From Alphaproteobacteria bacterium UBA2964 (GTDB taxonomy: Bacteria > Pseudomonadota > Alphaproteobacteria > MPNO01 > UBA2964): a DNA stretch of 60,688 nt. The DNA lies in contig CAJJCG010000031.1 in assembly GCA_905182615.1 (NCBI GenBank), forward strand, positions 1 to 60,688, in the 5' to 3' direction. Of the stretch, positions 17,395 through 60,688 are shown in pieces (position 1 is the stretch's first letter; each line of letters opens with the position of its first letter). A program made the translations under genes and the position numbers. A model generated the notes under the pieces. The model did not search any database, was not told the DNA's origin, and saw nothing but the letters and a program-made list of their open reading frames with translations.

Positions 17395-17414
17395 AGCACA
17401 TAAGACTCGACTCC

Positions 17415-18527: not shown

Positions 18528-18537
18528 AGCGACGCTC

Positions 18538-22451: not shown

Positions 22452-22482
22452 TAAAAATAGACAAGATACTATAAATTTAGGG

Positions 22483-25379: not shown

Positions 25380-25402
25380 CGGGTAGGGATAGGAGAAATA
25401 TA

Positions 25403-27639: not shown

Positions 27640-27717
27640 TAGCTGACTGGCCGAGTTGTTTTAAAATTAAGAATAGATAGCCCACTTCGGGGGCTGTGTT
27701 GAAAAAGGTGATTTAGC

Positions 27718-29493: not shown

Positions 29494-29566
29494 CGATATT
29501 CTCGCTGTTGGGATAGAATAATCACGCGTTGAGTGTGCGTCCGATTAACCACGGAGGACTTCAGCC

Positions 29567-30409
29567 ATGATGATCCAGAATGCGCCAGACGGCGAACCCC
29601 GCTTTGTCAGCCTGATGGCCGAGCATAACGAACTGTGCGAACAGTTTGCTCGCGCCTTTGGCAATGAACGGTTTGAAAAGCCCGAGCCTTTCGAGGAAAC
29701 CGTTTATGTCATCGGGCATCATGACCGCGGCTGGGACAAATTCGACGCAAGCCCTGTGCTCGATCCTATCAGTGGTTTTCCGACAGGTGTTGGCGGCGCT
29801 AAAGGGCCCGGCGGCGCGGCGACGACCAAGCTGTCACCGGATTTCAATCAGGCACGCCACGATTATTGCGGGTTGCTGGCCTCAATGCATACATGGGGGC
29901 TGTACCACGCGCGCTATGGCTTTTCGGATTTTCGGGTACGGCCAGGCGGATCGACATCCGTACCAATTGCAAAAGAAATGACCGGGGAAACCAACGAAAT
30001 CCTTACTCGGGAAATCGCCAGGCAGGAGGAATTGAAGGCCAAACTCGCGTCAGATGCTGCGACGGCTAGTTGGATCAAGGAAGACAACCTCTTCCGCAAT
30101 TACAAGCTCCTCCAGTTCTGTGATACGCTGGCGCTTTATTTCAACCTGCGCCACGAAAATGACCGCGCGGTTGAAGTGTTCACCCATGTGCCGGAGAACA
30201 CAGCCAGTGACACCTCGGTGACGGTAACACCGCAGGGCGAGGGGACTTATTCCTTTGCACCGTTCCCGTTTGCCGGTGACAGTCTCGAAATTCGTTCAAA
30301 GGGCCGTTATTTGACCGCTATGCCCGGCGATGCCGCGCCAAGTGATCTCGGGGTCCATATCGCGGGTCTTCCGGCTCAAGAACAGGTTTTTACCTTTGTC
30401 GGCGCATAA
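29567..30409 (+). CDS. DUF3891-like protein (HD-like motif)
   Basis: 280 aa. GGAGGA precedes the start. IGHHDRGWDKFD resembles the H-D-x-G-W core I recall for DUF3891. Weak call. Confidence 0.4.
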   Translation: MMIQNAPDGEPRFVSLMAEHNELCEQFARAFGNERFEKPEPFEETVYVIGHHDRGWDKFDASPVLDPISGFPTGVGGAKGPGGAATTKLSPDFNQARHDYCGLLASMHTWGLYHARYGFSDFRVRPGGSTSVPIAKEMTGETNEILTREIARQEELKAKLASDAATASWIKEDNLFRNYKLLQFCDTLALYFNLRHENDRAVEVFTHVPENTASDTSVTVTPQGEGTYSFAPFPFAGDSLEIRSKGRYLTAMPGDAAPSDLGVHIAGLPAQEQVFTFVGA

Positions 30410-30524
30410 AACAGCTACCTTTTAGTGCGTTAAAATTTTTGGTGCGGTTGGACTAGCCCCACCTGCGCCCGGCTGCTAATTTCTGTCGACATATTTTCAC
30501 GGCTTAAAAGATAGGGGACAGCTC

Positions 30525-32309
30525 ATGAGCGAGGGCGGCATCAAAAAATCAAACGTCAAATACAATTCCGACGTTATCGTCGACCTGATCAAGGATTTCG
30601 GATTCAAACATATCGCCTTGAATCCCGGCGCCAGCTATCGCGGGCTCCATGACAGCTTGGTCAATTACGGTGAAAACGACCCACCGATGATGCTCTGTAC
30701 CCACGAGAAAATCGCGGTTCAGATGGCGCATGGCTATGCCCGAGCCACCGGTGAGCCGATGATTGCCATTGTTCATAACCTAGTTGGGCTGCTGCATGCG
30801 CCGATGGGTGTCTATTATGCCTATCTCGACCGCGCGCCGGTCTTCATCATGGGGGCTACTGGCCCGGTGGCAGAGCCCAAGCGCCGCCCGTACATTGACT
30901 GGATTCATTCCGCAAACGTACAGGGTCAAATCCTGCGCGATTTCGTCAAATGGGATGCTCAGCCCAATACCATCGATTACGTGCCGGATGCTTTTGCCCG
31001 CGCCTATTCGGTCATGATGACCGCGCGTCAGGGGCCTATCTATATGTGCTATGACGCTGGCTTGCAGGAAGCCGAGCTCGATCACGAAATTAAAATGCCG
31101 CCAAAAACCGCTGCGCGAGTTCCGGCACAACCCGCACCTGACCCGACGGCGCTCGGCGAGGCTGCGGAAATGCTGGCCAACGCCGAACGTCCGGCCATTG
31201 TTGCCGATTTCGCCGCCCGCCCGCCGCATGGCTGGGATCATGTTATCGAAATCGCTGAAACACTGGGCGCCAGTGTCTGGGATGTGAATTCACGTCTCAA
31301 TTTCCCAGGTAATCATCCGCTGAACCTGTCGATGGATCAGGAGGCTTGTTACGAGGATGTCGATTGCGTGCTGCTGCTTGATGTTGCCGATTTTGAGAAA
31401 CACACCCATGTGCGGGATATTTCAACCCGCAGCGTAAAGCCGTCGGTTAAAGAGGACGCTAAATGGATCGACATCGGCTGGACCGATACAGAGATCAGTA
31501 AATGGACGATGGATTATTCGCGGACGCTGTTCCCTGATATCCGGATGACTGCAGACGTGGTCACCGCCACGCCGATGCTCACCGAGCTGATGAAAGGACA
31601 TATCGCCAACACCGATGGTCTGGCAGAAAAGATTGTCAAGCGCACCAAGTTGATCGGCGAGAAGCATCACAAGATTCGTGCGGACTGGCGCAAAGAGGCC
31701 GAAGAAGATTGGGACTCGCAGCCGATGACGGTTGGTCGTCTCGCGCTCGAAACCTGGGAAGTTATCAAAGACGAAGATTGGGTCCTCACGGCTGGCACAA
31801 TGCATGATGCCGCGCGTCGCTTGTGGGACTTCGACCGGCCTTACTGTCATGGCGGGCGAGAGCTCGGCACGGGCACACAGATCGGCACCTCTCTTGGTGT
31901 CGCGCTGGCCAATAAAGGCACCGGACGTCTTTGTATAAATATGCAGCCCGATGGCGATCTGATGTTTGATGCTGGCGCTCTGTGGATGGCGGCCAAGTAC
32001 GAAATCCCGATGTTGATCGTGATGTACAACAACCGCGCCTATTACAACGACTGGAACCATCAGATCGTAATCGCCAAGAACCGTGGTACTGACCCCGAGC
32101 GTGCCTATATCGGGATGGACCTGCTTGATCCTGATCCCGATTTTGCCGGCCTTGCACGTTCGCAGGGCTGGTGGGCAGAAGGTCCGATTGAGAACGGTGA
32201 CGATGTTCAAGCGGCATTACGACGGGCCATCGAACAGGTCAAAAAGGGCAAGCCCGCTCTGGTTGATACGGTCTGCATGCGTGGGAAGGGCAAAGCGGCT
32301 CTGACGTAA
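30525..32309 (+). CDS. ThDP-dependent enzyme, atypical subfamily (member F, paralogue of E)
   Basis: 594 aa, colinear with member E. NPGASYRGLHDSLVNY, RRPYIDWIHS, PDGDLMFD...YNNRAYYND. Confidence 0.8.
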   Translation: MSEGGIKKSNVKYNSDVIVDLIKDFGFKHIALNPGASYRGLHDSLVNYGENDPPMMLCTHEKIAVQMAHGYARATGEPMIAIVHNLVGLLHAPMGVYYAYLDRAPVFIMGATGPVAEPKRRPYIDWIHSANVQGQILRDFVKWDAQPNTIDYVPDAFARAYSVMMTARQGPIYMCYDAGLQEAELDHEIKMPPKTAARVPAQPAPDPTALGEAAEMLANAERPAIVADFAARPPHGWDHVIEIAETLGASVWDVNSRLNFPGNHPLNLSMDQEACYEDVDCVLLLDVADFEKHTHVRDISTRSVKPSVKEDAKWIDIGWTDTEISKWTMDYSRTLFPDIRMTADVVTATPMLTELMKGHIANTDGLAEKIVKRTKLIGEKHHKIRADWRKEAEEDWDSQPMTVGRLALETWEVIKDEDWVLTAGTMHDAARRLWDFDRPYCHGGRELGTGTQIGTSLGVALANKGTGRLCINMQPDGDLMFDAGALWMAAKYEIPMLIVMYNNRAYYNDWNHQIVIAKNRGTDPERAYIGMDLLDPDPDFAGLARSQGWWAEGPIENGDDVQAALRRAIEQVKKGKPALVDTVCMRGKGKAALT

Positions 32310-32483: not shown

Positions 32484-34820
32484 ATGGTTGAGAAGTTTGG
32501 TGTTGGGCAGCCGGTCCCGCGTTTTGAGGACCCCCGTCTTTTAACGGGTGGTGGCCGCTATATGGATGATAACCAAATGCCAAATGAGACTCGTGCCTAT
32601 ATTCTGCGCTCGCCTTACGCCCACGCTAAAATCCTGTCGATGGATTTGACTGCCGCCAAAGCGGCACCGGGTGTTGTCGAGATTTTGACCGGTCAGGATT
32701 ACATTAATGATGGGCATGGCGCGCTTAAATGCTCGCCGGTCCAGAAGCAGCGCGATGGCTCACGGATGTTTGAGCCCGATAACCCGCCGCTGATCGATAA
32801 TGAAGTCAAAATGGTTGGCGATTACGTCGCGTTAATTATCGCCGAGACCATCGATCAGGCGAAAGATGCCGCCGAGCTGATCGAAGTGGATTACGAGGCA
32901 CTGCCATCAGTGTCTTTACCCTTTCCAGCATCGCAAGCTGATGCGCCAAAAGTCTGGGCCGATCACGACAGCAATATTTGCTTTGTTCACACAGTGGGCG
33001 ACAAATCGGCAACCGATGCAGCTTTTGATCGGGCCGCGACGATTGCCGGTGGCGAACTACCGGTAAACCGTAGCGCCCATGTCACGATGGAGCCGCGCGG
33101 TGCCATTGGCGATTACAACCAGGGCTCGGGGATGCTGACGCTGTATACCGGCGTGCATTATCCTTGGCAGTTGCGCGAAGAACTTGCGAGCAAAATTTTC
33201 GATATGCCGGAAACCAAAGTCCGCGTTGTTGCAGGTGATATGGGTGGCAGCTTTGGTCTGCGTGGCGGAACCTATCGCGAGCATGTGCTGGTGTCCTGGG
33301 CTGCCTTGCGCATCGGGCGCCCGGTCAAATGGGTCTGCGAACGCTCCGAAGGATTTATGAGCGATCATCAGGGTCGTGACGTTTACTGGGATGCTGAAAT
33401 TGCATTGGATGAAAACGGAAAATTCCTTGCTGTCCGTGCCACCAGCTTTGCTAATGTTGGTGCTTATCTGGCGAGTAAAGGCACGCTGCCGCCAATTGCC
33501 AACCTTGGCACCATGGCAGGGACTTACGATATTCCAGCGATGTATGTTGATGTCTCGGCGGTTTTTACCAATACCAACCCTATTTGCCCATTCCGCGGCA
33601 ATGGCCGTCCGGAAGCATCCTATGTCATCGAGCGGTTGATCGATCTCGCAGCAGATGAAACCGGCATAGATCCGGCTGAACTGCGGCGTATCAACCAAAT
33701 TCCTCCAGAAGCCATCCCATATAAAACGGCGCTTACCTTTACCTATGACAGTGGTAATTTTGGCGACAATCTCGAGAAGACTTTGAAGATGGTCGATTAT
33801 GACGGTTTTCCCGCGCGCCGCGAACAATCCCGAGCCAACGGTATGCTTCGAGGCATTGGTATTTCTAACAGTATCGAACGCGCCGCTGCAGCCAGTATTG
33901 AGCAGGTAGAAATCCGGTTTAATCCGGGTGGTACGGCAACGCTTTTTGCAGGCACCAGCCAGCAAGGGCAGGGGCATGAGACAATCTATAAGCAAATTAT
34001 GTGTGAGAAGCTTGGCCTTGACCCCTATGAGGTCGGTTTCAATGAAGGCGATACCTCTATCCTCGCTTTTGGCGGTGGTACGGGTGGGTCTCGTTCGGCG
34101 ACTCTTGGCGGTAGTGCAGTTCTGGGCTGCTCTGACAAGATCATTGAAAAGGCGACTAAGTTGGCGGCACATCTTCTGGAAGCGGCGGATGCCGATATTG
34201 AGTTCGCCGACGGCACTTTCGTCGTCGCCGGAACCGACAAGACAATTAGTCTGACCGAAGTCGCGCAGGCCAGTTACAAGCCAGGTCGTACGCCTGTTGA
34301 TATGGAACCTGGTCTTGGATCGGTCTTCACCTATGAAGCCGCCAAAGAGAATTTCCCCAATGGTTGTCATGCTTGTGAGATGGAGATCGACCCCGAAACT
34401 GGCGTGACCGAGATCGTCAGCTACAAGGTTGTTGATGATGTTGGCACGGTGCTGAACCCGCTGACACTCAAAGGGCAGATCATGGGTGGTGTTGCTCATG
34501 GTATCGGGCAGGCCTTACTCGAGGAAATTCAATTTGATGCCGATAGTGGCCAGCTTATTACCGGCTCCTTTATGGATTACACGATGCCGCGCGCTGACAA
34601 TATGAGCTACATCGATGTTGTGAGTAACCCATGCCCGACAGCCACAAACCCTCTGGGCTGCAAAGGGGCAGGCGAGGCTGGAACCGTTGGTGCCGTGCCG
34701 TGTGTCATGAACTCGGTTGTCGATGCACTATCAGAGTATGGCATTCGTCATATCGACATGCCGGCAACGCCTGCCAAAATTTGGGCAGCCATCGAAGCAG
34801 CAAAGAAAGCGGCGGCGTAA
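32484..34820 (+). CDS. xanthine dehydrogenase/aldehyde oxidase family molybdopterin-binding large subunit (CoxL/XdhB-like)
   Basis: 778 aa. N-terminal RFEDPRLLTGGGRYMDD and overall size and architecture are typical of this family. Confidence 0.8.
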   Translation: MVEKFGVGQPVPRFEDPRLLTGGGRYMDDNQMPNETRAYILRSPYAHAKILSMDLTAAKAAPGVVEILTGQDYINDGHGALKCSPVQKQRDGSRMFEPDNPPLIDNEVKMVGDYVALIIAETIDQAKDAAELIEVDYEALPSVSLPFPASQADAPKVWADHDSNICFVHTVGDKSATDAAFDRAATIAGGELPVNRSAHVTMEPRGAIGDYNQGSGMLTLYTGVHYPWQLREELASKIFDMPETKVRVVAGDMGGSFGLRGGTYREHVLVSWAALRIGRPVKWVCERSEGFMSDHQGRDVYWDAEIALDENGKFLAVRATSFANVGAYLASKGTLPPIANLGTMAGTYDIPAMYVDVSAVFTNTNPICPFRGNGRPEASYVIERLIDLAADETGIDPAELRRINQIPPEAIPYKTALTFTYDSGNFGDNLEKTLKMVDYDGFPARREQSRANGMLRGIGISNSIERAAAASIEQVEIRFNPGGTATLFAGTSQQGQGHETIYKQIMCEKLGLDPYEVGFNEGDTSILAFGGGTGGSRSATLGGSAVLGCSDKIIEKATKLAAHLLEAADADIEFADGTFVVAGTDKTISLTEVAQASYKPGRTPVDMEPGLGSVFTYEAAKENFPNGCHACEMEIDPETGVTEIVSYKVVDDVGTVLNPLTLKGQIMGGVAHGIGQALLEEIQFDADSGQLITGSFMDYTMPRADNMSYIDVVSNPCPTATNPLGCKGAGEAGTVGAVPCVMNSVVDALSEYGIRHIDMPATPAKIWAAIEAAKKAAA

Positions 34821-42567: not shown

Positions 42568-43869
42568 GTGACGGTGACCTTAACTGAAGGGCTAGTTAAG
42601 TTAATTCGTAAAAAACCAGTTTCGGTTGTTGATCTTCATCAAACGGCTTTGTTCACGCTTGATGCGGTTGCCAATATGATTGCCGGTCGCAACTCAGAGC
42701 CGGGACGTAAGCTCCTCGAGTGGGGTAAAAACCGTCAAAGAGATTCTGCACGGCGCGCCTTTGTTATGGGTGGGCTGACGCATATTTTGGAAGTTGATGA
42801 TATTCATCGGGCATCAGTGGTTCACACCGGCTGTGTAACGGTCCCGGTTGCTTTAGCTCTGGCGGCTGATCAAGATATTCCCGGTGAGAAGTTTCTTAAA
42901 AGCGTTCTTTATGGATTTGAAGCAAGCTGTCGCGTCGGAATGGCAGTTGGTCCGGCACATTACAAAATTTGGCATAACACAGCGACCTGTGGGCCTTATG
43001 GCAGTGCTATGACAGCCGCGACAATTCTCGACCTTAACGATGAGCAGACGATGCACGCGCTCGGTAATGCGGGCACACAGTCAGCCGGTTTGTGGGAATT
43101 TCTCGCCACCGGTGCGATGAGCAAACATCTTCATGCTGGGCGTGCTGCAGAGGCAGGGCTAGTAGCTGCTGAGTTGGCCGCCCTGGATTTTACCGGGCCA
43201 CCGGCGATCCTCGAAGGACCCGCCGGGTTTTTCGCGGGTGCCTGTCCCGACCCAGACCCGGAGGCCGTTTTAAGAGATGCCGGTGCTGAATGGCAGGTGC
43301 ATTTGACCTCGATCAAGCCATGGCCCGCGTGCCGTCATACCCATCCGGCGATCGATGCGTCACTCGCGGTATTTGATGATCTCGATGGGGCTGCCATAGA
43401 GCGCATTGAGGTTGAGACTTATCAGGCCGCAATTGATGTGTGTGACCGGCCTGTAGCAAACAGCGAATATGAAGGCAAGTTTTCTCTGCAGCATTGTGTT
43501 GCTGCAGCGTTGCAACGCGGCAAGGTCGATTTTTCTGCCTTTGGACCAGAGGCACGACGTGATGCGGCGGAGCTCGCAACGAAGGTAAGTGTGTCAGCCG
43601 GCGGGCCTTATGCCAAATCCTACCCGGCTTCATGGGGGGCTGCGGTTTCTGTTATTCTCGCGGATGGTACAAAACTAGAATCCTCAAAGCCCGAATGTAA
43701 GGGCGATCCAGAATCGGCGTTGAATGACGATGAGATGATTGCCAAAGCCCGCGACCTGATCCGCTTTGGTGGCATCAATGACCCGGCGCCGGTCATTGAG
43801 GGTGTTATGGGAATGTCCCAAGGTGGTAATTCTCTGAATGTATCTAGCCTATTAGCGTCTGCAGCATAA
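42568..43869 (+). CDS. MmgE/PrpD-family protein (not the canonical PrpD)
   Basis: 433 aa with a GTG start. Family-like core (GGLTHILEVDDIH, TCGPYGSAMTAA). Confidence 0.7.
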   Translation: MTVTLTEGLVKLIRKKPVSVVDLHQTALFTLDAVANMIAGRNSEPGRKLLEWGKNRQRDSARRAFVMGGLTHILEVDDIHRASVVHTGCVTVPVALALAADQDIPGEKFLKSVLYGFEASCRVGMAVGPAHYKIWHNTATCGPYGSAMTAATILDLNDEQTMHALGNAGTQSAGLWEFLATGAMSKHLHAGRAAEAGLVAAELAALDFTGPPAILEGPAGFFAGACPDPDPEAVLRDAGAEWQVHLTSIKPWPACRHTHPAIDASLAVFDDLDGAAIERIEVETYQAAIDVCDRPVANSEYEGKFSLQHCVAAALQRGKVDFSAFGPEARRDAAELATKVSVSAGGPYAKSYPASWGAAVSVILADGTKLESSKPECKGDPESALNDDEMIAKARDLIRFGGINDPAPVIEGVMGMSQGGNSLNVSSLLASAA

Positions 43870-49087: not shown

Positions 49088-50776
49088 TTAGCCTTTTTGA
49101 GCGGCTAAGCCTGCTTCTCGTAGTCCCGAAAGGGTAGCTCTTGGCGAAATTTGGTCCTGCTCAACGCGGATCTCGATCATCGCCGGACCACCAGACTCTA
49201 ACGCTTTTTCGAAGGCCGGGGCAAACTCCTCCGTCCGTTTGACGACTTCACCGGTGAGCCCAAATGCCTTGCCGAGGGCGGCAAAATCTGGATTAATAAG
49301 ATCGGTTCCGCTGACGCGGCCCGGATAGAATTTTTCCTGATGCATGCGGATCGTACCATAGGTGCTGTTATTGACGACGACAAAGACGATCCCGAGATTG
49401 TATTGGCGGGCTGTCGCGATCTCCTGTCCGCACATCAAAAAATCACCATCGCCACTGAACGAGACAACGATACGGTCAGGGTGCACTGTTTTGGCGGCTA
49501 CTGCTGCGGGGACGCCATAGCCCATAGATCCACTTTGCGGTGCTAGCTCGGTCGGGTAGCTGCGATAGGGATAGAAGCGGTGTACCCAGTTCGAAAAATT
49601 GCCTGCGCCGTTGGCGATAATCGCATCATCCGGTAGGCGTTCACCAAGCCACTGAATGATGGAACCGAGATCGACGTCGCCTTTCATGTCTGGAATTGTG
49701 ACGTTGCCGTCCTGGTCTGCTCGCGCGGCCCTAGTCAAGTTGGACCACGGAACGCTGTTTGGTGCCTTTAGTGCCTTAGCCGCGGCTGCAAAATTGGCCA
49801 TGCCGGAATGGATTGCCAGTTCGGGTTCGTAAACCCTAGCAAGCTCATCAAGGCCCGCCGCAATATGTACGAGCGTTTGGCTAGGGCAGGGGATTGCGAA
49901 CCGCTCATAGCCATCGGTTATGGTTTCGGTCATTTGCGCACCGACAACGATGAGTAAATCAGTTTCCTGAAGGCGTTTGGCGAGTGGCGGATTAATCCCC
50001 AGCCCAACATCACCGGCGTAGTTTGGATGCCGGTTATCGATTAGGTCCTGACGGCGAAAAGCGGCGCCAACCGGTAAATCAAAATTCTCCGCAAACTTAA
50101 CGAAATCGTTGCAGGATTCTTGTGTCCAGCCGCTGCCCCCAAGAATGACGAAAGGACGTTGCGCCTGGTCAAGCATTTCTTTGAGCTGAACCATTGCCTC
50201 TGGCGGCGGGGCGGGATTGATCGGTTTATAGCGGACGGCATCATTGACCGAAGCCTTTTCCTTTTGCATGTCTTCCGGCAGGGCAATGACAACAGGGCCG
50301 GGGCGCCCCGATGTCGCGACATGGAAAGCGCGGCTCAAAACTTCTGGTATGCGGTTGGGATCATCGATCTGGGTGACCCATTTCGACAAAGGCGCGTACA
50401 TTTCGCGAAAATTAACTTCCTGAAACGCTTCGCGGTCCATCATGGCGCGTCCGACTTGACCAACCAGAAGAATAACCGGCGACGAATCCTGATGCGCGGT
50501 GTGAATGCCGAGACTGGCATTCGTTGCCCCCGGGCCACGAGTGACAAAGCAGATCCCAGGTTTGCCTGTTAGCTTACCATAGGCCTCGGCCATATAGGCG
50601 GCTCCGCCTTCCTGGCGGCACACGACCAGTTTAATATCGTTCTGTACATCAAACAGCGCGTCCAGTGTGGCGAGATAGCTCTCACCGGGGACACAGAAGA
50701 TCGTATCGGCGCCATGAATACGCAGCTGATCGACAAGAATCTGGCCACCAGTCCGTAGATTTGGGTTGTCGGTCAT
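49088..50776 (-). CDS. ThDP-dependent enzyme, acetolactate-synthase-large-subunit-like canonical type (member G)
   Basis: 562 aa. VPGESYLATLDAL, QEGGAAYMAEAYG, GDGDFLM..(22)..VNN. Confidence 0.8.
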   Translation of the reverse strand: MTDNPNLRTGGQILVDQLRIHGADTIFCVPGESYLATLDALFDVQNDIKLVVCRQEGGAAYMAEAYGKLTGKPGICFVTRGPGATNASLGIHTAHQDSSPVILLVGQVGRAMMDREAFQEVNFREMYAPLSKWVTQIDDPNRIPEVLSRAFHVATSGRPGPVVIALPEDMQKEKASVNDAVRYKPINPAPPPEAMVQLKEMLDQAQRPFVILGGSGWTQESCNDFVKFAENFDLPVGAAFRRQDLIDNRHPNYAGDVGLGINPPLAKRLQETDLLIVVGAQMTETITDGYERFAIPCPSQTLVHIAAGLDELARVYEPELAIHSGMANFAAAAKALKAPNSVPWSNLTRAARADQDGNVTIPDMKGDVDLGSIIQWLGERLPDDAIIANGAGNFSNWVHRFYPYRSYPTELAPQSGSMGYGVPAAVAAKTVHPDRIVVSFSGDGDFLMCGQEIATARQYNLGIVFVVVNNSTYGTIRMHQEKFYPGRVSGTDLINPDFAALGKAFGLTGEVVKRTEEFAPAFEKALESGGPAMIEIRVEQDQISPRATLSGLREAGLAAQKG

Positions 50777-51769: not shown

Positions 51770-51937
51770 AGAATTAGGTTTCCTATATCATAATTTAAAG
51801 ACATCACATCACAGGGGAAGAGCTCCGGCAACTGCGTAGACTGCCAAAGTGAATGCAGTTAGGCCGCTGTCGTTGATCGACCTCCTCATTCAGGTATGAT
51901 CCTGCCCAATACGGCAGAAAATAGAACAAAGATAGTT

Positions 51938-53446
51938 ATGAAAAATCATACGGTTAGAACTTATTCCTCAAAAGAAAATTTAGCCCGCGAAGACGAGTTG
52001 GCCTGGAAACTTGGGGCGCTGGCGGTTGATCCAGTCCCGGTCGATGATGATGTCGCCGACATGATTATGAACCGGATCATCGATAACGCTTCTGTTGCTA
52101 TTGCAGCTATCAATCGTTCACCCCCTGCTGCAGCGCGTGCGCAGGCATTGGCACATCCCCGCGATGGCGGTGCAACTGTATTTGGCGTCGCCAATAATCA
52201 GCAGTTTGATGCCGAGTGGGCGGCCTGGGCCAACGGCACAGCAGTTCGCGAGCTGGATTATCACGACACATTTTTGGCGGCCGATTATGCGCATCCCGGT
52301 GATAACATCCCTCCGTTATTGGCGGTCGCTCAGCAACTCGGAAAATCCGGTCAAGAATTGCTGAATGGTCTGGCGACCGGTTATGAAATTCAGATTAATC
52401 TCGTGCGGTCGATTTGCTTGCATGAACACAAAATCGATCATGTCGCGCATCTCGGCCCATCTGCCGCTGCGGGTATTGGCACAATGTTGGGATTGCCGGT
52501 CGAGACAATTTATCAAGCTGTACAGCAAGCGTTGCACGTAACGACATCGACGCGTCAATCTCGCAAAGGTGAGATTTCCAGCTGGAAGGCCTTTGCGCCG
52601 TCCCATGCTGGTAAGCTGGCGATTGAAGCGGTTGATCGCTGTATGCGCGGCGAGGGGGGGCCGTCTCCGATTTATGAAGGAGAAGACGGTGTCATTGCCT
52701 GGATTCTGTCGGGGCCGGAAGCTATCTATTCAGTGCCATTACCCGAAATTGGTGAGTCGAAACGCGCAATTCTCGACTCCTTCACCAAGGAGCATTCCGC
52801 GGAATATCAAAGTCAGGCGCTGATTGATCTGGCCTTTCGGATGAAAGAACAGATCAGTGATTTTGAAGCGATTGATCGTATCGTTATTCAGACCAGTCAC
52901 CATACTCATTACGTAATTGGTACGGGCGCTGGCGATCCGCAGAAAATGAATCCAACAGCGAGCCGGGAAACGCTCGATCATTCGATCATGTATATCTTTG
53001 CGGTCGCTCTGCAGGATGGCGAATGGCACCATATTCGGTCTTATTTGCCTGAGCGGGCGGCACGCGAAGATACCGTGCGACTGTGGAACAAGATTGAAAC
53101 TGCTGAAGACGCCGAGTGGACGACGCGGTATCACGAAACCGACCCCGATAAGTTAGCCTTTGGCGGGCGCGTCGAAATCACTTTGAAAGATGGCTCGGTT
53201 ATCATGGATGAGTTGGCCGTTGCGAATGCTCATACGAATGGTGCACGGCCGTTTGCCCGGGAAAACTATATTCACAAGTTCCGGACTTTGACGGAAGGGC
53301 TGGTCTCCGTGATCGAGCAGGACCGTTTTCTTGATCTCGTTCAGCGCTTGCCGGAATTGACCGCTGAAGAAGTCCGGCAAATCAATGTTGTGCTGGATGT
53401 AGCTACTCTTGAGTCAGCAGCCCGCGATACAAAAGGAATATTCTGA
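51938..53446 (+). CDS. prpD: 2-methylcitrate dehydratase
   Basis: The track ORF starts at 51896; ATG 51938 is preferred. About 500-aa MmgE/PrpD protein directly followed by prpB and prpC. Confidence 0.75.
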
Positions 53447-54351
53447 TGTTATTTGCAACTAAATCAGCCGCTGAAAAACGATCGGGTTTCCGTGCTGGGT
53501 TGAACTCGGGAAAAATCCTCAAGTTTCCCGGCGCTCATGCCCCTTTGGTTTCGATGGAAATTGAGCGGCAAGGTTTCGATGGCGTTTATATCTCGGGCGC
53601 TGCGCTCTCCGCTGACCTCGGCCTACCTGATATCGGTCTTACGACATTGTCTGAGGTTACCCAGCGTGGTCGTCAAATTTCTCGCGTGACGTCGCTACCG
53701 GCTATTATTGATATCGATACTGGATTTGGCGAACCAATGAGTGCTGCCCGCACGGTGCAGGAGCTCGAAGAACTCGGCATCGCCGGGTGCCATTTGGAAG
53801 ATCAGGAAAACCCTAAGCGCTGCGGCCATCTCGATAACAAATCACTGGTCAGTTTGGATGAAATGGCGCGGAAGATCATGGCGGCATCGGATGCCAAAAC
53901 CGACCCCAACTTTGTGCTTTTTGCACGAACTGATGCGCGGGCATCGGAAGGAATGGATGCGGCGATTGATCGGGCGAAGGCTTATGTCGACGCGGGCGCG
54001 GACGCTATCTTCCCGGAGGCTATGGAAGGGGAGAAGGAATTCGAAATATTCCGCAAGGCGATCGACGTGCCAATGATGGCAAATATGACAGAGTTCGGAA
54101 AATCACCGTTGTTGTCAGCCCAACAACTCGAGAACCTCGGTTATAATCTTGTGATCTATCCGGTAACCACGATGCGGCTCGCAATGGGCGCGGTACGTGA
54201 TGGCCTGGCGGAAATTGCCGAGACCGGCACTCAAAATGGTTTGATCGATAAGATGCATAGCCGGAAAGAACTGTACGAACTTATCCGCTATCAGGATTAC
54301 AATAATTATGACCAGTCGGTCTTTAACTTCAAAGTGCGCGAAGAGGGATAA
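53446..54351 (+). CDS. prpB: 2-methylisocitrate lyase
   Basis: 301 aa. IIDIDTGFG and EDQENPKRCGHL (KRCGH) motifs. The start shares one nt with the prpD stop (TGATG). Confidence 0.85.
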   Translation: MLFATKSAAEKRSGFRAGLNSGKILKFPGAHAPLVSMEIERQGFDGVYISGAALSADLGLPDIGLTTLSEVTQRGRQISRVTSLPAIIDIDTGFGEPMSAARTVQELEELGIAGCHLEDQENPKRCGHLDNKSLVSLDEMARKIMAASDAKTDPNFVLFARTDARASEGMDAAIDRAKAYVDAGADAIFPEAMEGEKEFEIFRKAIDVPMMANMTEFGKSPLLSAQQLENLGYNLVIYPVTTMRLAMGAVRDGLAEIAETGTQNGLIDKMHSRKELYELIRYQDYNNYDQSVFNFKVREEG

Positions 54352-54356
54352 GCGAG

Positions 54357-55487
54357 ATGGCAAAAGAACCACGGATTTATAAAGGTCTTGATGGGGTTGT
54401 CGTCGACGAAACGGCGATCTCAAAGGTTATGCCTGAAACCAACTCGCTGACCTATCGTGGCTATGCTGTGCAGGACCTCTGTGAGTATTGTTGCTTTGAA
54501 GAGGTGGCGTATCTGTTGTGGCATGGCCAGCTCCCGACCCGGACACAGTTGCGGACGTTCAAGAAGGACGAACGCAGCCGCCGCAAAATTTCCCGGGATC
54601 ATCTGGCCGTAATTCAAAAGTTTCCAAAACGCGCCCATCCGATGGATACTATTCGGACCTCGGTTAGCTATCTCGGTACGACAGAGATTGCCTGGGGCGG
54701 AGAACCCGTCGAAGCTGATATGGAACGGTCGATGAATTTGTTGGCAAAAATACCAACAATGATCGCGACCGACTATCGTTTGCGGAAGGGCAAGCGTCGT
54801 ATTGCGCCACGTACCGATCTTTCTTTCTCCGAAAACTTTTTGAATATGTGCTTTGGCGAAGTCCCGCCGAAGCAGGTGGTGAAGGCATTTGATATTTCAC
54901 TGATCCTGTATGCCGAGCACAGCTTTAATGCGTCGACCTTTGCCACGCGTGTTGTGACGTCGACGATGTCAGATGTTTATAGCGCCGTAACAGCGGGCAT
55001 CGGTGCCCTCAAAGGCCCACTCCATGGTGGTGCTAATGAAGCCGTCATGAATATGCTGCTGGAAATTGGCCATCCGGATAAAGCCGAATCCTGGCTGCGC
55101 GATGCTTTCGCCAATAAACGCGTCGTGATGGGATTTGGACATCGGGTCTACAAATGGGGTGATAGCCGGGTGCCGACGATGCGGGGCTGCCTTGAAGGTC
55201 TCGCGCGCTGGAAAAATGATCGTAAATGGATCGAGATTGAAGATGTTCTTGAGGACATCATGGTCAAGGAAAAGAAAATTCACCCCAATCTCGATTATCC
55301 GGCGGGCCCGGCCTATTACATGATGGGTTTCGACATTGATATGTACACGCCAATCTTCGTGATGAGCCGGATTATCGGCTGGACGGCGCATTACATGGAA
55401 CAGAATGCGGCGAACCGTTTAATCCGCCCGCTTTCCGCCTATACCGGCGTTAAACAAAGGCGGGTAAAGCCGATTGCCCATCGCTGA
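54357..55487 (+). CDS. prpC: 2-methylcitrate synthase / citrate synthase family
   Basis: 376 aa. LTYRGY, LKGPLHGGANE and GFGHRVYK citrate-synthase motifs. The prp assignment comes from context. Confidence 0.8.
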   Translation: MAKEPRIYKGLDGVVVDETAISKVMPETNSLTYRGYAVQDLCEYCCFEEVAYLLWHGQLPTRTQLRTFKKDERSRRKISRDHLAVIQKFPKRAHPMDTIRTSVSYLGTTEIAWGGEPVEADMERSMNLLAKIPTMIATDYRLRKGKRRIAPRTDLSFSENFLNMCFGEVPPKQVVKAFDISLILYAEHSFNASTFATRVVTSTMSDVYSAVTAGIGALKGPLHGGANEAVMNMLLEIGHPDKAESWLRDAFANKRVVMGFGHRVYKWGDSRVPTMRGCLEGLARWKNDRKWIEIEDVLEDIMVKEKKIHPNLDYPAGPAYYMMGFDIDMYTPIFVMSRIIGWTAHYMEQNAANRLIRPLSAYTGVKQRRVKPIAHR

Positions 55488-57421: not shown

Positions 57422-58180
57422 ATGGCTCGGCTTGAAAATGATGTTGCGATTGTAACCGGTTCGGCGCGGGGTATTGGTGCGGCCTATGCCAAAGCGTTAG
57501 CAGCTGAAGGTGCCAAGGTCGTTGTAGCCGATATCCTAGACCCTGGTTCTACTGTTGAAGAGATTAAAGCGGCAGATGGCACCGCTATCAGCATTGTTTG
57601 CGACGTTACTGACAATGCAGCAATCGATGCCATGATATCGCAGACGGTTTCCGAGTTTGGAAAGATCGATGCGCTGGTCAATAACGCGGCGTTGTTTGCA
57701 GAAATCTCTCATAAAAAGTTCGAAGATATTCCCGATGGCGAATGGGCCAGGGTGATGCAGGTGAATATCGAGGGTGTCTGGCGCGTATCAAAAGCTGTCG
57801 TGCCGCATATGCGGGTGCGGCAATATGGCAAGATCGTCAATGTCGCGTCGACCACCGCACTCAAAGGGACCCCGATGATGCTGCATTACGTGTCATCAAA
57901 AGGCGCCATTCTGGCGATGACGAAAGCGATGGCGCGGGAAGTTGGCGAAGATAATATATGCGTCAACGCGATTGCGCCGGGGCTGGTAGTCAGTGACGGG
58001 CTCGTGGAAGGCGGCAATTGGAGCGACGAGTGGTTCGATAACAATACCAACAGTCGTGCCATCAAACGGCGGGCGATGCCGGAAGATATGGTCGGGACGA
58101 TCGTTTTCCTCTCGTCGCGTGAGGCAAATTTTATTACCGGCCAAACTATGGTGGTTGATGGCGGGTCGATACCGCATTAA
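57422..58180 (+). CDS. SDR-family oxidoreductase, copy 5
   Basis: 252 aa. TGSARGIG, NNAA, YVSSKGA. Confidence 0.85.
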   Translation: MARLENDVAIVTGSARGIGAAYAKALAAEGAKVVVADILDPGSTVEEIKAADGTAISIVCDVTDNAAIDAMISQTVSEFGKIDALVNNAALFAEISHKKFEDIPDGEWARVMQVNIEGVWRVSKAVVPHMRVRQYGKIVNVASTTALKGTPMMLHYVSSKGAILAMTKAMAREVGEDNICVNAIAPGLVVSDGLVEGGNWSDEWFDNNTNSRAIKRRAMPEDMVGTIVFLSSREANFITGQTMVVDGGSIPH

Positions 58181-58248
58181 TTGACTTTTCGCTATCCACC
58201 GCCAAATTCACATGCGAATCTTTGTGCAGAACTAACAGGAGAAAACCA

Positions 58249-58872
58249 ATGGCCGATGATCCAGTTACGGTCGAGATATTCACCGACTATGTGTGACCAT
58301 GGTGTTTTCTCAGTACCGTGCGTATTGAAAAGTTAAAACAGAATTTCAACGTCGATATCAAGTTGGTGCATTTCCCGCTGCATCCCGATACTCCGCTAGA
58401 AGGCCGTTCGATGGCGGATCTCTATGCCGGGCGGGGCACTGATCCCGACGAGATGTATCGTCAGATGAAAGAACGGATGGAAGCGGAAGGCCTGCCCTAC
58501 GGCAAACGCACCCATACTTATAACAGCCGCAAGGCACAGGAGCTTGGCAAGTGGGTCGATACGCAAGATAACGGCGACGCGCTGCACGATGCGCTGTACC
58601 GGGCTTATTTCGTCGACACCAAGAATATTGGCGATATCGATGTTCTGGTCGAAATCGCCGATGCAAATGGTTTCGATGGGGCGGAAGTTCGTCAGATTCT
58701 CGAAGACGGCAAGTTTAGTGCCGCTGTTGATGAGGATTGGGCCAAGTCACGCGCTTATGGTGTGACCGGTGTTCCGACCTATGTCGCGGGTGGTTTTGGC
58801 GTGGTTGGTGCGCAACCATATGAAGCGCTTGAACAGCTTATGAGTGAAGTTGGAGCTGTTAAAGTTGGTTAG
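58249..58872 (+). CDS. DsbA/FrnE-family thiol:disulfide oxidoreductase with in-frame TGA at the first CxxC position (candidate selenoprotein, U-P-W-C)
   Basis: AGGAG at 58238-58242 precedes ATG 58249. The frame reads MADDPVTVEIFTDYV-TGA-PWCFLSTVRIEKLKQNF... and continues in phase into track ORF 58318..58872. That body (VTGVPTYV, FrnE-like) is DsbA family. Confidence 0.6.
58294..58296 (+). other. candidate selenocysteine (UGA) recoding codon
   Basis: The TGA sits exactly where D-x-x-C-P-W-C places the nucleophilic Cys. A hairpin follows immediately: stem 58298-58303 paired with 58315-58320, and an 11-nt loop starting GU. Confidence 0.5.
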
Positions 58873-58934
58873 CTAGGTTGGTTCTGTTGAATTTCAGAGT
58901 GGACATATAATTCCGAGGTTAAATTTCCAGAGTT

Positions 58935-58966
58935 TGAGGCGGTGGCCTCATGCTCTGGTTTATTTG
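58935..58966 (+). terminator. candidate intrinsic terminator after the DsbA-like gene
   Basis: TGAGGC-GGTG-GCCTCA is a perfect 6-bp stem, followed by the T-rich TGCTCTGGTTTATTTG. Confidence 0.35.
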
Positions 58967-59197
58967 TCTAATGTAGACCTTCTACGATAACCGTTATTAA
59001 GAAATAGTTTTTGCTGAGTATCTTAAAGCGTGCGTTCAAAGATCTCTTACGGTACGACGCACTACCCGAAACGGCCGTAATCCGAGAAAAAATTGAAGCG
59101 AATAGAGAAGTTGATCAGCCATTTTGTCCGTCTTCTGAAGGCGATCTTATTTATTCTCTTATCGTCTGCCGTCAGCGGCTATGGAACAAAATAGTGA

Positions 59198-59742
59198 GAT
59201 TGTATACGGGAGGATTTCTGGTTCATCGTAGTGACCGAAGGGAACGAAGATGAGACAGAAATCGCAGACACGACAGACGGGTGTCGCCAAGGCGATCAAG
59301 GACATTCGCCGGACTACCCGCAAGCAGTATGTAACAGTATCTCCGGACAAAATTACCTCCGGCTCACCTTCAGTTTTTGCGCTACTTGGAACTTTATCAT
59401 ATTGAGAAGGATTATCTTCTCGTGCATGCCGGTGTTGCTCCGGGAGTGCCGATTGAAGGTCAAGGGGCCGAAGACTTTCTTTGGATCCGCGAAGAGTTTT
59501 TGCGATCAAAAGCCCATCATGGGCATTGTATTGTCCATGTCCATTCAATCGTTGATATGCCGGAGTTCCTCCTAAATCGGATCGCTATTGGTACCGGTGC
59601 CTATTATATTGGCCGGTTAACATGCCTGATGCTTGAAGGGGATGAGCGCCGGTTTATGCAGACCTTATCTCGGAATTTAGTATCGTGCTGCGTGTTCGAC
59701 ATCAGGGTTTTCTGGATCATTACACAATCTGAAGAGGCGTGA
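59198..59742 (+). pseudogene. decayed PP1/lambda-type metallophosphoesterase (Ser/Thr phosphatase) remnant
   Basis: The C-terminal part (frame of 59377..59742) reads YLLVHAGV.PG...EDFLWIREEF...IVHVHS...NRIAIGTGAYY.GRLTCL. The family motifs VHGHT and DTGA are mutated to VHVHS and GTGA. An upstream piece in another frame reads VVTEGNED (compare RGNHE). Stops and frameshifts separate the pieces. Confidence 0.45.
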
Positions 59743-59960
59743 TTACTGGAAGAGCCTGACGATCTTTTGGATGCGGCAGATGAGCTCGCTAATCTGATTT
59801 CACCCACCCTTGCCGCATATGTGTTGAGTAGCGTAGAGGACCAGAAGGATGAGCCTGTTATAGAGACATCTCGGGTTTCCAAAAACGGGCTGCTTGCTAA
59901 ATTTTCTCTGTCACAGCAGCTCATTGAGCGGAAGTTTTGGCGGGTTCAGGAATTGATGTC

Positions 59961-60688
59961 ATGTTTCTGAAGGGGTTTGCAAACGGGAACAGTTTTTATC
60001 CCGACCCAGTTTTGCGGCAGCAAGGAGATCTCGATTTTCTGATCCGGAAACAGGATTTACAGGCCGTGATAGAGTTTCTGGCTCCTTATGGGTTTGGGTT
60101 TCGGGCCGCGCCCCTAAGTCGTTGGGGTACAATTTATGACGCAGGTTTTGTGCCCGGCATGACCTCTGATGGCAGCTGTGACCTCGATATTCACGTCCAT
60201 CCTGATTATTATCCCGCCCATTGCTCGCTGACGACCGAACGACTGTTTGCTGAATCAATGCTCGTTGGTGCGGGTAGTTTTACCGTGCGGGTTCCGTCGC
60301 ACGAGCACGCTTTACTTTTATGCGTGACGAATATTGCGAAGGACAAGTTTAATGTGTTTAGCATTCGCAAAGTCATCGACGCGATGGTGCTTATACGGGC
60401 AACGCCGAATCTCGACTGTGAAAAAATTATAGAGCTCGCCTCGGAAGGAAGTTTTCTCATGCCAACGCGAGTTTTCTGCTCCCTTCTGCTCGCTCTGGGA
60501 TTTTATCAGAACACGATTCCGGACATATTGCTGAAGCCTGCACCGCGCTGGTGGAAAAAATCATTCCAGACCGTTGTTCGGAGGTTTCGGCGTCTGTTCC
60601 CGGGTGACCCCTCTTTGTTGCCGATTTTATGGCGGGAATGGGCGCTATGCGCAGAGCCGGCTGTTGCATTGTACAATTTGAAGTTACG
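59961..60688 (+). CDS. nucleotidyltransferase-family protein (NTP_transf_5-like), runs off the right edge; N-terminal part appears frameshifted
   Basis: Open frame to the window end, so it is absent from the track. My translation: (LAGSGIDV)MFLKGFANGNSFYPDPVLRQQGDLDFLIRKQDLQAVIEFLAPYGF...DLDIHVH..., i.e. the LKG...Y.dP..R...D.D.L motif of that family. The expected N-terminal ~60 aa sit in another frame (59767..59970). Confidence 0.4.
   Translation, partial: MFLKGFANGNSFYPDPVLRQQGDLDFLIRKQDLQAVIEFLAPYGFGFRAAPLSRWGTIYDAGFVPGMTSDGSCDLDIHVHPDYYPAHCSLTTERLFAESMLVGAGSFTVRVPSHEHALLLCVTNIAKDKFNVFSIRKVIDAMVLIRATPNLDCEKIIELASEGSFLMPTRVFCSLLLALGFYQNTIPDILLKPAPRWWKKSFQTVVRRFRRLFPGDPSLLPILWREWALCAEPAVALYNLKL

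Follow-up and report, generated by a model that had tools for sequence, protein, structure and literature searches.

An in-frame TGA in a FrnE/DsbA-like gene of an alphaproteobacterium is almost certainly a selenocysteine codon and is followed by a covarying SECIS-like hairpin

Introduction

A DsbA-like protein with a UxxC motif (COG2761) was described as a selenoprotein of the Sargasso Sea by Zhang, Fomenko, and Gladyshev in 2005, and the supplement of that work lists the sequence AACY01473751 as "DsbA-like" (PMC1088965). The same family appeared as "DsbA 1" in the GOS paper of 2008, where it was found to be enriched in marine samples and its Cys forms to be about 10-fold more numerous overall (PMC2398784), and as "DsbA-like protein form 1" (PF01323, UxxC) in a 2026 review, which states no experimental selenium incorporation for any DsbA-like family member (PMC13188914). 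The review also gives a model of the bacterial selenocysteine insertion element (bSECIS), comprising a loop of 3-9 nt, an upper stem of 4-16 bp, a G within the first two loop positions, and a distance of 16-37 nt from the UGA, together with a stability threshold of -7.5 kcal/mol or lower (PMC13188914). The fdhF-type SECIS of Escherichia coli is likewise a stem-loop with a small apical loop, located inside the gene immediately after the UGA.

Two groups of Cys-containing proteins are close to this family. FrnE of Deinococcus radiodurans (drFrnE; DR_0659, structures 5CNW and 5CP1) belongs to the FrnE subfamily (cd03024) and acts in the cytoplasm as a disulfide isomerase/reductase; an active site of the form CP(W/F)C has been given for this subfamily (PMC8945050). 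The D. radiodurans protein is 260 aa long and ends in a C239-xxxx-C244 tail, the proposed regenerator of the enzyme. Many members have this CxxxxC motif, but since the FrnE proteins of S. roseofulvus and D. maricopensis are devoid of it, it is not strictly defining for the subfamily. The periplasmic DsbA of the E. coli type, on the other hand, has a thioredoxin fold into which a helical domain is inserted (PF01323), carries CPHC, and is reoxidized by DsbB.

Results and discussion

A reading frame that continues through TGA

The window, i.e. the whole stretch of DNA that was analyzed, comprises 60,688 nucleotides of contig CAJJCG010000031.1 from Alphaproteobacteria bacterium UBA2964. Mechanical ORF calling places an ORF at 58318-58872 that begins at an internal GTG, and public databases list the protein as a 184-aa truncation, which is the kind of mis-annotation that a preliminary description of this DNA had expected. 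As was also claimed there, this ORF has no catalytic N-terminus, and the full frame opens at ATG 58249-58251 and reads M-A-D-D-P-V-T-V-E-I-F-T-D-Y-V-[TGA]-P-W-C before it ends with TAG at 58870-58872. The features of the gene are as follows:

58249-58872, + strand: full coding sequence of the predicted selenoprotein, 207 codons including Sec16, then the TAG stop (from translation)
58237-58241, + strand: Shine-Dalgarno sequence AGGAG, 7 nt before the ATG (direct reading)
58294-58296, + strand: predicted Sec codon UGA (residue 16), which replaces the first Cys of CPWC (from the conserved TGA and the alignment with FrnE Cys22)
58303-58305, + strand: TGT codon of the predicted resolving Cys19 of U-P-W-C (invariant Cys in 83/83 sequences)
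58318-58320, + strand: internal GTG (Val24), a false start for ORF callers, corresponding to loop nt 25-27 of the SECIS-like hairpin
58774-58776, + strand: Pro176 codon in the conserved G-V-T-G-V-P-T (T173-G174-V175-P176 invariant in the alignment)

The frame, the position of the TGA, and the P-W-C that follows it (CCA TGG TGT, 58297-58305) were found exactly where the preliminary description had put them, and the ribosome-binding site was present as well, though one base away from the 58238-58242 given for it. Equivalent AGGAG/GGAGG sequences lie 5' of the start codons in three relatives (L001, L002, and L004), and reading of the sequence ahead of the internal GTG 58318 revealed no purine-rich Shine-Dalgarno sequence. 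TGA also serves as a normal stop in the window, ending 11 of its 47 long ORFs, and the code is therefore standard, in line with the earlier remark that any recoding would be local. When all six frames of the window were scanned for further in-frame TGA candidates, the output was too noisy to be informative, and only 58294 stood out.

When U was replaced by C, the read-through protein matched the Pfam family DSBA (PF01323) over residues 7-197 (E=5e-36) and the FrnE structure 5CNW (E=2e-24). In the latter alignment the TGA fell on Cys22 of C22-P-W-C25, and Cys homologues have TGC at this site, so that its assignment to the nucleophilic Cys position was borne out. No specific NCBIfam model scored above its cut-off; the best match, to the Rcas_1661 selenolipoprotein family, reached 38.8 bits where 190 are required. 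The region around Pro176 presumably forms the cis-Pro loop opposite the active site of the thioredoxin fold. Very probably, 58249-58872 codes for a cytoplasmic thiol-disulfide oxidoreductase of the FrnE/DsbA type with 207 residues (~23 kDa), whose predicted nucleophile would be the UGA-encoded U16 of U16-P-W-C19.

The window protein has in common with the DsbA-like selenoprotein family its PF01323/COG2761 assignment, the UxxC motif with Sec in first place, and the context U-P-W-C-[FY]-L-S-T-V, and there is no substantive difference between them. It is identical to AACY01473751 at 79 of 88 residues (≈90%), and the hairpin sequence described below is the same in both. The gene is thus a member of an already known selenoprotein family, published in 2005, and its truncated form is a routine gene-calling error and no discovery; the preliminary description, too, had regarded the concept as known from marine selenoproteome surveys. 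With drFrnE it shares the DsbA-like thioredoxin domain over about 200 residues, the D-x-x-C-P-W-C context (with Sec for Cys22), the lack of a signal peptide, and a stand-alone gene outside a polyketide cluster. Unlike drFrnE, however, it is only 207 aa long and has no C-terminal CxxxxC regeneration motif, Cys19 being the sole Cys in its translation. By inspection only, it has no hydrophobic leader, since MADDP leads directly into strand beta-1 (VTVEIFTDYV). The neighboring genes are SDR, NIPSNAP, and EamA genes, with no dsbB partner among them. The thioredoxin fold with its helical insertion and the PF01323 match are shared with the E. coli protein, but the absence of a signal peptide, the (U/C)PWC motif in place of CPHC, and the lack of a nearby dsbB indicate that the protein is not a periplasmic disulfide oxidase of the E. 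coli DsbA type.

Conservation of the TGA and its flanking codons

As the preliminary description had proposed, orthologs were compared at the TGA. The homologous codon was TGA in 80/80 GTDB species-representative genomes and in 79/79 metagenome loci, i.e. in 159/159 of the fetched TGA-clade loci with a readable site, whose proteins show 63-89% amino acid identity; conservation of this extent is far from what chance would give. Among the carriers of the TGA form are OZ244931.1 and OZ251446.1, the 4.1-Mb contig ptg000018c of ERZ18545485 (87% identical to the window and syntenic with it), the metagenome-assembled genome A_MB73 (CALSLP01), and the cultured Desertibaculum subflavum SYSU D60015 (NZ_QOZS01). 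These loci sit in varied gene neighborhoods, and the upstream peptide, the start codon, and the downstream gene are kept across them, the ATG itself in 71/83 sequences. The 15 codons before the TGA bear the mark of purifying selection at the protein level: F, D, Y, and V are invariant, while their third bases vary synonymously, as illustrated by the Val codon just before the TGA (GTC in 44, GTT in 34, GTG in 4, and GTA in 1). Homologs with C-P-W-C exist as well (P0012, P0016, P0023, P0085, and others) and their DNA has TGC at this position; the DNA control for these Cys forms consisted of four distinct genes, obtained from four exact-protein look-ups. A scan of metagenomes that started from Cys-form proteins returned TGA forms only.

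These data bear on the simplest alternative, namely that the TGA is a nonsense mutation, a pseudogene lesion, or a sequencing error and that the product, if any, starts from GTG 58318 and has no CxxC. The internal start is indeed the one recorded by ORF callers and public databases (184 aa), and the Sec machinery was not seen in the window. However, 159 independent loci, the most distant with 63% amino acid identity, have TGA at this same codon, and because of this conservation the TGA is not a lesion. Moreover, the upstream 15 codons, the start codon, and the Shine-Dalgarno sequence are conserved, the internal GTG is GGG, which is no start codon, in 13/83 relatives, a product without CxxC would be without an active site, and one would not find a lesion together with an RNA hairpin that covaries. 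The conservation data effectively refute this explanation, to which we assign next to no probability.

Since TGA is present in every one of the 159 close relatives sampled and many of them are metagenome-assembled genomes (MAGs) with names that suggest soil, the picture differs from the marine-enriched, mostly Cys-containing family of the GOS description. Our sampling shows predicted Sec forms to dominate this alphaproteobacterial subclade, including the MAGs with soil-suggesting names.

A covarying hairpin downstream of the TGA

The nucleotides 3' of the TGA were expected to be more conserved if they form a recoding signal, as the preliminary description had pointed out, and this was indeed observed. 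Synonymous sites of codons +5 to +11 had an information content of 1.3-1.9 bits, compared with about 0.4-0.9 bits for four-fold sites located more distally, and third codon positions were near-invariant across 58310-58328. The RNA structures that involve this region are as follows (in the text, the U of the UGA is nt 1, so that 58304-58333 corresponds to nt 11-40):

58304-58333, + strand: conserved SECIS-like hairpin; lower stem of 58304-58306 with 58331-58333, plus 58308 with 58329 (from covariation)
58310-58328, + strand: upper stem-loop of the SECIS-like hairpin, 7 bp; UCAGUAC 58310-58316, loop CGUGC 58317-58321, GUAUUGA 58322-58328
58298-58320, + strand: hairpin CAUGGU/ACCGUG of the preliminary description, 58298-58303 with 58315-58320; a lineage-specific alternative pairing, unconserved

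Across the alignment, 95.6% of the cells of the 58304-58333 hairpin were paired, and six of its pairs showed double changes; 0/500 shuffles matched this value, and controls slid along the alignment reached at most 49.6%. Its pairs 21-31 and 12-39 were the top two of all column pairs by APC-corrected mutual information (MIp). At pair 21-31, 122 sequences have U-A and 30 have C-G, which corresponds to about seven independent switches, with no intermediates. GC content was considered as a cause of this C-G/U-A covariation and rejected, given that the C27/G37 clade has the AT-rich state at column 45 and that both pairs head the all-against-all MIp ranking. In divergent published DsbA-like members all seven stem pairs (7/7) are kept through different base pairs, and 8/8 of the selenoprotein genes in this divergent published set have GU at nt 25-26; in our alignment G25 of the loop is invariant, whereas nt 26 is U or G. 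In the four Cys-form genes the hairpin is lost, only 2-5 of the 7 pairs remaining, and the codons there are relaxed.

The geometry agrees with the bSECIS model, as the loop has 5 nt, the stem 7 bp, and the G stands at loop position 2 followed by U/G, while the loop starts 20 nt past the A of the UGA. The stability, however, lies short of the threshold in the window: the upper stem has -5.9 kcal/mol and the minimum free energy (MFE) of nt 4-48 is -6.2 kcal/mol (ViennaRNA), compared with -7.5 kcal/mol, and the lower stem is weak here (G-U, U-G, and U-A) and adds no stability. Relatives reach -8.6 to -13.7 kcal/mol, and in 64/81 of them the MFE fold of the single sequence includes the upper stem-loop. 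The -7.5 kcal/mol threshold is a search heuristic and no biological requirement. Rfam searches of the whole window (gathering threshold) and of 58150-58950 (E<=10) gave only chance-level matches, and no bacterial SECIS family was apparent in Rfam. With respect to the fdhF-type SECIS, the intragenic location immediately behind the UGA and the small apical loop are shared features, also of the bSECISearch consensus, but the primary sequence is unrelated. The conservation pattern is a clear illustration of how coding sequence is constrained by an RNA element, at synonymous sites as well as in its amino acids (S-T-V-R-I-E).

Competing hairpins

The preliminary description had proposed another element, a 6-bp hairpin that starts 2 nt after the TGA. 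It does exist at 58298-58320, but its role as a functional element did not hold: in a single-sequence fold of 58290-58350, which says little by itself, its stability was at chance level (z=0.31 versus 200 shuffles), pair 6-26 does not form in 67/81 sequences, and covariation is absent, with a score below every shuffle. The family mean energy is -1.5 kcal/mol, and the complete hairpin is found only with a CCA codon for Pro17, which L001 and L005 share with the window. RNAalifold (81 sequences) preferred yet another overlapping hairpin, nt 7-13 with 19-25, which was rejected as a functional element on account of its 0 compensatory pairs, its degradation in divergent members, and its closeness to the UGA.

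It is very improbable that either of these two structures, rather than the stem-loop at 58310-58328, is the functional recoding element. What speaks for them is that an extended form of the first hairpin is the MFE structure in the window (-7.4 versus -5.9 kcal/mol for the upper stem of the SECIS-like hairpin) and that RNAalifold selects the second, whose variable pairs shift only between G-U/G-C and C-G/U-G. Yet neither contains compensatory double changes, and divergent members retain 2-5 of 6 pairs of the first and 4-6 of 7 pairs of the second, as opposed to 7/7 in the SECIS-like stem. Furthermore, the loops of both are without a conserved G at loop position 1-2, and both begin 1-4 nt past the UGA. 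Within the ribosome footprint, mRNA located 1-4 nt past a UGA in the A site lies in the mRNA channel and is unwound. The hairpin CAUGGU/ACCGUG shares nucleotides with 58304-58333, and the two pairings are mutually exclusive; it is conceivable, though improbable, that in the window this lineage-specific competitor (-7.4 versus -5.9 kcal/mol) tunes Sec insertion versus termination.

Decoding of the UGA

The reading as a selenoprotein is favored because the UGA, both coding flanks, and the compensating hairpin are conserved together, and because the hairpin is lost in Cys forms and the protein belongs to a published selenoprotein family. On these comparative grounds the local recoding of UGA in a UxxC protein, as suggested in the preliminary description, is well supported, and it is almost certain that the in-frame TGA represents a true Sec codon in a cytoplasmic FrnE/DsbA-like redox protein. 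By analogy with the standard bacterial Sec pathway, the hairpin at 58304-58333 would still be outside the ribosome when the UGA is reached, and its apical loop CGUGC would present G25-U26 about 20 nt past the UGA. There it would bind SelB-GTP-Sec-tRNASec, and this complex, competing with RF2, would deliver Sec into the A site. In the finished protein, the selenolate would attack substrate disulfides, and Cys19 would resolve the mixed selenenylsulfide.

The UGA might instead be decoded as an amino acid other than Sec. Near-cognate read-through could yield Cys or Trp, or a SelB/tRNASec-like route could operate independently of selenium, and the hairpin would then serve to stimulate read-through. 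Sec-type recoding is documented to vary in nature (PMC10778597). We nevertheless regard such decoding as highly unlikely in view of the following: (i) the hairpin fits the SelB-type bSECIS consensus in its geometry and in the G-U/G signature of its loop, (ii) the family has been curated as selenoproteins since 2005, and Sec machinery co-occurs in the same metagenomes, and (iii) Cys can be reached by a single TGA-to-TGC/TGT change without any RNA element, and the lineages so changed have lost the hairpin.

As to the machinery itself, selA, selB, selD, and tRNA-Sec were not found in the 60.7-kb window, whose source contig spans only about 63 kb. A Pfam scan of its 30 large ORFs for SelA, SelB, and SelD gave no hits, and the other 17 ORFs are all <325 aa and therefore too short for SelA or SelB. 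SelD/SelA signature-motif regular expressions and ARAGORN, applied to 0.8 Mb of fetched loci, produced no matches and no tRNA-Sec, respectively.

If Sec is accepted at this position, the correct annotation of the gene is 58249..58872 with a transl_except for Sec at 58294..58296, and hundreds of 184-aa database entries named "DsbA family / thioredoxin domain" would really be 207-aa selenoproteins. The gain is a SECIS structure backed by covariation for the DsbA-like/FrnE selenoprotein family, which is modest and involves no new principle.

Arginine codons at the Sec position

In two relatives the Sec position is occupied by an Arg codon, CGA in L165 and AGA in L171, each of which is one first-base change away from TGA. 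These two variants come from ERZ23491408 and ERZ27259480, and the SECIS-like hairpin and the remaining ORF are intact in both. Mukai et al. are said to have described, in 2016, Sec insertion at sense codons other than these. It would be a long shot to suppose that in L165 and L171, too, the hairpin directs Sec to a sense codon by means of a tRNASec with the matching anticodon; if true, however, the family would provide a case from nature in which NGA sense codons are recoded as Sec.

Gene structure and genetic code

The gene is represented in the ORF list by a single mechanically called frame, and the same reading frame extends upstream through a TGA codon. The following elements were located:

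58237-58241, + strand: Shine-Dalgarno sequence AGGAG, read in the sequence
58249, + strand: start codon ATG, read in the sequence
58294-58296, + strand: in-frame TGA, after M-A-D-D-P-V-T-V-E-I-F-T-D-Y-V
directly 3' of the TGA, + strand: CCA TGG TGT, translated as P-W-C
58318..58872, + strand: mechanically called ORF of 184 aa with a GTG start
58870-58872, + strand: stop codon TAG, from translation

The path laid out in the preliminary description, from the ATG through the TGA and P-W-C to the TAG, was recovered, as was the opening of the supplied ORF at an internal GTG, while the AGGAG is present but lies one base 5' of the position assigned to it (58238-58242). ORF calling had indeed missed the gene: public calls give the 184-aa product (e.g. 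NKB22526.1), and such entries are named 'thioredoxin domain-containing protein' or 'predicted DsbA family dithiol-disulfide isomerase'. The 207-residue protein, translated with Cys at the U position, is matched by Pfam DSBA (PF01323) over essentially its full length, residues 7-197 (E=5e-36). The TGA had been placed at the nucleophilic Cys of the CxxC motif, and it aligns with Cys22 of C22-P-W-C25 in the best solved relative, Deinococcus radiodurans FrnE (drFrnE; 5CNW/5CP1, E=2e-24). Because TGA is an ordinary stop in 11 of the 47 long ORFs of the window, in line with the earlier reading of it as a true stop elsewhere, the standard genetic code applies there. Judged from sequence comparison, UGA 58294-58296 is very probably recoded as selenocysteine (Sec), giving a DsbA/FrnE-type selenoprotein.

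Conservation of the TGA codon

The gene calls for most of the top 120 homologous proteins (67-100% identity) carry the same truncation, to exactly 184 aa, and homologues of ~200-210 aa reading D-Y-V-C-P-W-C were interleaved among them. In three diverged 184-aa homologues with different gene neighbourhoods (loci L001, L002 and L004), the homologous codon is TGA in each case, with a conserved open frame, an ATG and a Shine-Dalgarno sequence ahead of it. With one genome scanned for each GTDB species, 80 loci of 63-88% identity were obtained, one of which (L079) was picked up by a looser pattern, and TGA occupied the homologous codon in 80/80. By label, these loci are mostly alphaproteobacterial (Rhodospirillales, Stellaceae, Hyphomicrobiales, the cultured Desertibaculum subflavum), and a few are MAGs labelled Betaproteobacteria, Ectothiorhodospiraceae or Rokubacteria. 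A metagenome scan returned a further 80 loci and, despite being seeded with Cys-form proteins, gave TGA in 79/79 loci with a readable site. The choice between TGA and TGC/TGT in orthologues had been raised earlier; TGC was found in four distinct Cys-form genes. Among the TGA carriers are many MAGs with names (SMAG_, MFD...) that point to soil or terrestrial sampling, habitat being taken from the names only.

Upstream of the TGA, residues F-5, D-3, Y-2 and V-1 are invariant with variable third bases (Val-1 codons: GTC 44, GTT 34, GTG 4, GTA 1; 83 sequences), and an ATG stands at codon -14 in 71/83 sequences, a pattern typical of translated sequence. The conservation excludes a nonsense lesion or sequencing error at the TGA. 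The internal GTG chosen by ORF callers is not a conserved start, since it is GGG in 13/83 relatives.

A conserved SECIS-like hairpin

Raised nucleotide conservation 3' of the TGA, which had been proposed as a check, was observed: the third positions of codons +5 to +11 (CTC AGT ACC GTG CGT ATT GAA) are near-invariant, at 1.3-1.9 bits versus about 0.4-0.9 bits at four-fold sites further downstream, and AGT, CGT and ATT are kept even in GC-rich genomes. These nucleotides form a hairpin, analysed in a nucleotide alignment of 81 distinct relatives (U of UGA = nt 1), with these elements:

58304-58333, + strand: conserved SECIS-like hairpin, whole
58310-58316 with 58322-58328, + strand: upper stem, nt 17-23 with 29-35
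58317-58321, + strand: apical loop CGUGC, nt 24-28
nt 11-13 with 38-40, plus 15 with 36, + strand: lower stem

In this hairpin, 95.6% of alignment cells are paired and both-side changes occur in 6/11 pairs; 0/500 shuffles match the observed values, and slid-partner controls reach ≤49.6% paired. All-against-all mutual information (APC-corrected, MIp), calculated without a structural prior, gave as its top two column pairs 21-31 and 12-39, both base pairs of the hairpin. Pair 21-31 is U-A in 65 sequences and C-G in 16 with no mismatch, and pair 12-39 is C-G in 36, U-A in 33, U-G in 6 and other in 6. Genomic GC content cannot explain this covariation, because position 39 is in its AT state in the C21/G31 clade. 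A neighbour-joining tree of 152 distinct sequences, constructed from the remainder of the gene, places about 7 changes of state at pair 21-31, each on both sides and with no intermediate. Loop G25 is invariant, and position 26 is U or G. Two loci (L054, L156) have the loop GGUCC instead of CGUGC via two simultaneous synonymous changes (ACC->ACG, GTG->GTC), so that G24 and C28 could pair and close a GUC triloop.

The hairpin agrees with the published model of bacterial SECIS elements, taken from a 2026 review, in geometry (5-nt loop, 7-bp stem, 20-nt spacing from the UGA) and loop rule (G at loop position 2, then U or G), whereas its energy in the window, -5.9 to -6.2 kcal/mol, is weaker than the model's -7.5 kcal/mol or lower. 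The window's lower stem consists of G-U, U-G and U-A only; relatives reach -7.5 kcal/mol or lower.

The preliminary description had proposed another hairpin, 58298-58303 with 58315-58320. It is present in the window; as the SECIS it is wrong and is replaced by 58304-58333. Its stability is at shuffled level (z=0.31), and its family mean energy is -1.5 kcal/mol. Of the 81 distinct relatives, 67 lack its second pair, and its covariation score is lower than that of any shuffle. Only the window, L001 and L005 form it completely; all three encode Pro17 as CCA. This codon completes an alternative hairpin there (58297-58320 in the window; -7.4 kcal/mol with extension), which cannot form together with the SECIS upper stem (-5.9 kcal/mol) and is unstable in other lineages. 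The overlapping helix preferred by RNAalifold (nt 7-13 with 19-25) was rejected, having no compensatory pair. Both rival helices start 1-4 nt 3' of the UGA; mRNA at this distance lies within the ribosome's mRNA footprint, and their region would be unwound with the UGA in the A site. Both also degrade in published Sargasso Sea 'DsbA-like' genes.

Cys-form and published selenoprotein genes

Four distinct TGC genes (L166/L167, L168, L169, L170) served as Cys-form DNA controls. They keep 2-5 of the 7 upper-stem pairs, and their codons have shifted to CGC, ATC/GTC, GCC/GCG and GAG/GCG. Their peptides differ from one another (YLATAR, YLSTPR, YLASAR, YLSTGR), while TGA forms are fixed at YLSTVRIEKL. 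Since both the nucleotide and the amino-acid constraint are relaxed in Cys-form genes, they are tied to the TGA. An independent test set came from the 'DsbA-like' selenoprotein genes of the Sargasso Sea (PMC1088965, supplement): the divergent AACY01178397 and AACY01078317 form 7/7 upper-stem pairs via different base pairs (G-U, G-C, U-G), AACY01543637 has a 5-bp version, and GU stands at nt 25-26 in 8/8 sequences. Published AACY01473751 (MVQVEIFTDYVuPWCFLSTVRIEKLKKNF...) is 79/88 identical to the window protein, and its hairpin is identical to that of the window.

The selenoprotein family is already described, in line with the view in the preliminary description that the concept is not new. 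The 2005 Sargasso Sea selenoproteome (PMC1088965) lists it as 'DsbA-like protein' (COG2761, UxxC, nine sequences, predicted SECIS), the 2008 GOS paper (PMC2398784) as 'DsbA 1' (pfam01323, UxxC, marine-enriched; 63 sequences with Sec and 704 with Cys), and the 2026 review (PMC13188914) as 'DsbA-like protein form 1'. The present analysis adds an annotation correction and a well-supported SECIS structure. The GOS family is mostly Cys, whereas 159/159 close relatives sampled here (L005-L164) are TGA forms; true Cys forms came only from exact-protein look-up.

Variants at the Sec site

In two relatives the codon at the Sec site encodes Arg, CGA (L165:498-500; homologue P0099) and AGA (L171:106-108; P0081), each one first-base substitution away from TGA, with 7/7 hairpin pairs and the rest of the ORF intact; P0014 also has R there. 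Assembly or read errors on ~1-kb contigs could account for these codons, as could a recent inactivation or Sec recoding at sense codons like that reviewed in PMC10778597. Such relatives with an intact SECIS are the one item with some novelty potential. Public entries P0004 and P0028 have Trp at the site (FTDYVWPWC). For P0028 the DNA reads TGA at this codon (L172:344-346), so the gene was called under a TGA=Trp code table, which yields by accident a full-length but wrong protein. P0013, with the N-terminus MGSEMCIRDRPWC..., reads ...MCIRDR immediately ahead of PWC. We take MCIRDR to be the translation of a Nextera adapter remnant; the P0013 contig would therefore be adapter-chimeric at the Sec site.

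Predicted function and genomic context

From its sequence, the product is assigned as a cytoplasmic FrnE-subfamily thiol-disulfide oxidoreductase (U16-P-W-C19) encoded by a stand-alone gene. By inspection it has no signal peptide. C19 is its only Cys, and P176 falls in a conserved G-V-P cis-Pro loop. The CxxxxC motif found at the C-terminus of drFrnE is absent, as it also is from the FrnE proteins of S. roseofulvus and D. maricopensis. drFrnE is induced by stress and acts as a disulfide isomerase/reductase, and cells that have lost it become more sensitive to cadmium and diamide (PMC8945050); by analogy, the window protein may be a disulfide reductase or isomerase with a selenolate in place of the nucleophilic thiolate. 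The neighbours in the window encode an SDR, a NIPSNAP protein and an EamA transporter, as in 87%-identical L001, but neighbourhoods differ among relatives, and because they are not conserved no operon partner can be named. The window, from a source contig of only about 63 kb, contains no tRNA, Sec-machinery genes were absent from its 30 scanned ORFs (TPP enzymes, UbiD, FMN dehydrogenases, TauD, amidohydrolases, methylcitrate-cycle genes), and searches of 0.8 Mb of fetched flanks gave no hit to Sec machinery.

Elsewhere in the window, paralogues are unusually concentrated at 15817-32309 and 49088-50776, and the paralogue-rich region looks like a catabolic island:

18538-20400 (-), 20727-22451, 23580-25379, 25403-27193, 27718-29493, 30525-32309, 49088-50776 (-): seven TPP-dependent enzyme genes
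4961-12981: three UbiD-family decarboxylases
32484-34820: xanthine-dehydrogenase-type molybdoenzyme

Two ornithine cyclodeaminase/mu-crystallin genes, three FMN-dependent dehydrogenases and two TauD dioxygenases also belong to this concentration. At 51896-55487, PrpD-like (MmgE/PrpD), PEP-mutase/isocitrate-lyase-family (PrpB-like) and citrate-synthase-family (PrpC-like) genes follow one another, an arrangement like that of a methylcitrate-cycle operon, and a second MmgE/PrpD paralogue is at 42568-43869. In the 1.8 kb downstream of the selenoprotein gene (58873-60688) there are only short ORFs, overlapping and on both strands, none of them convincing as a gene. A breakpoint may lie here, close to the end of the contig, or the DNA may be mobile or degenerate; syntenic L001 has an oligopeptide ABC transporter at this place.
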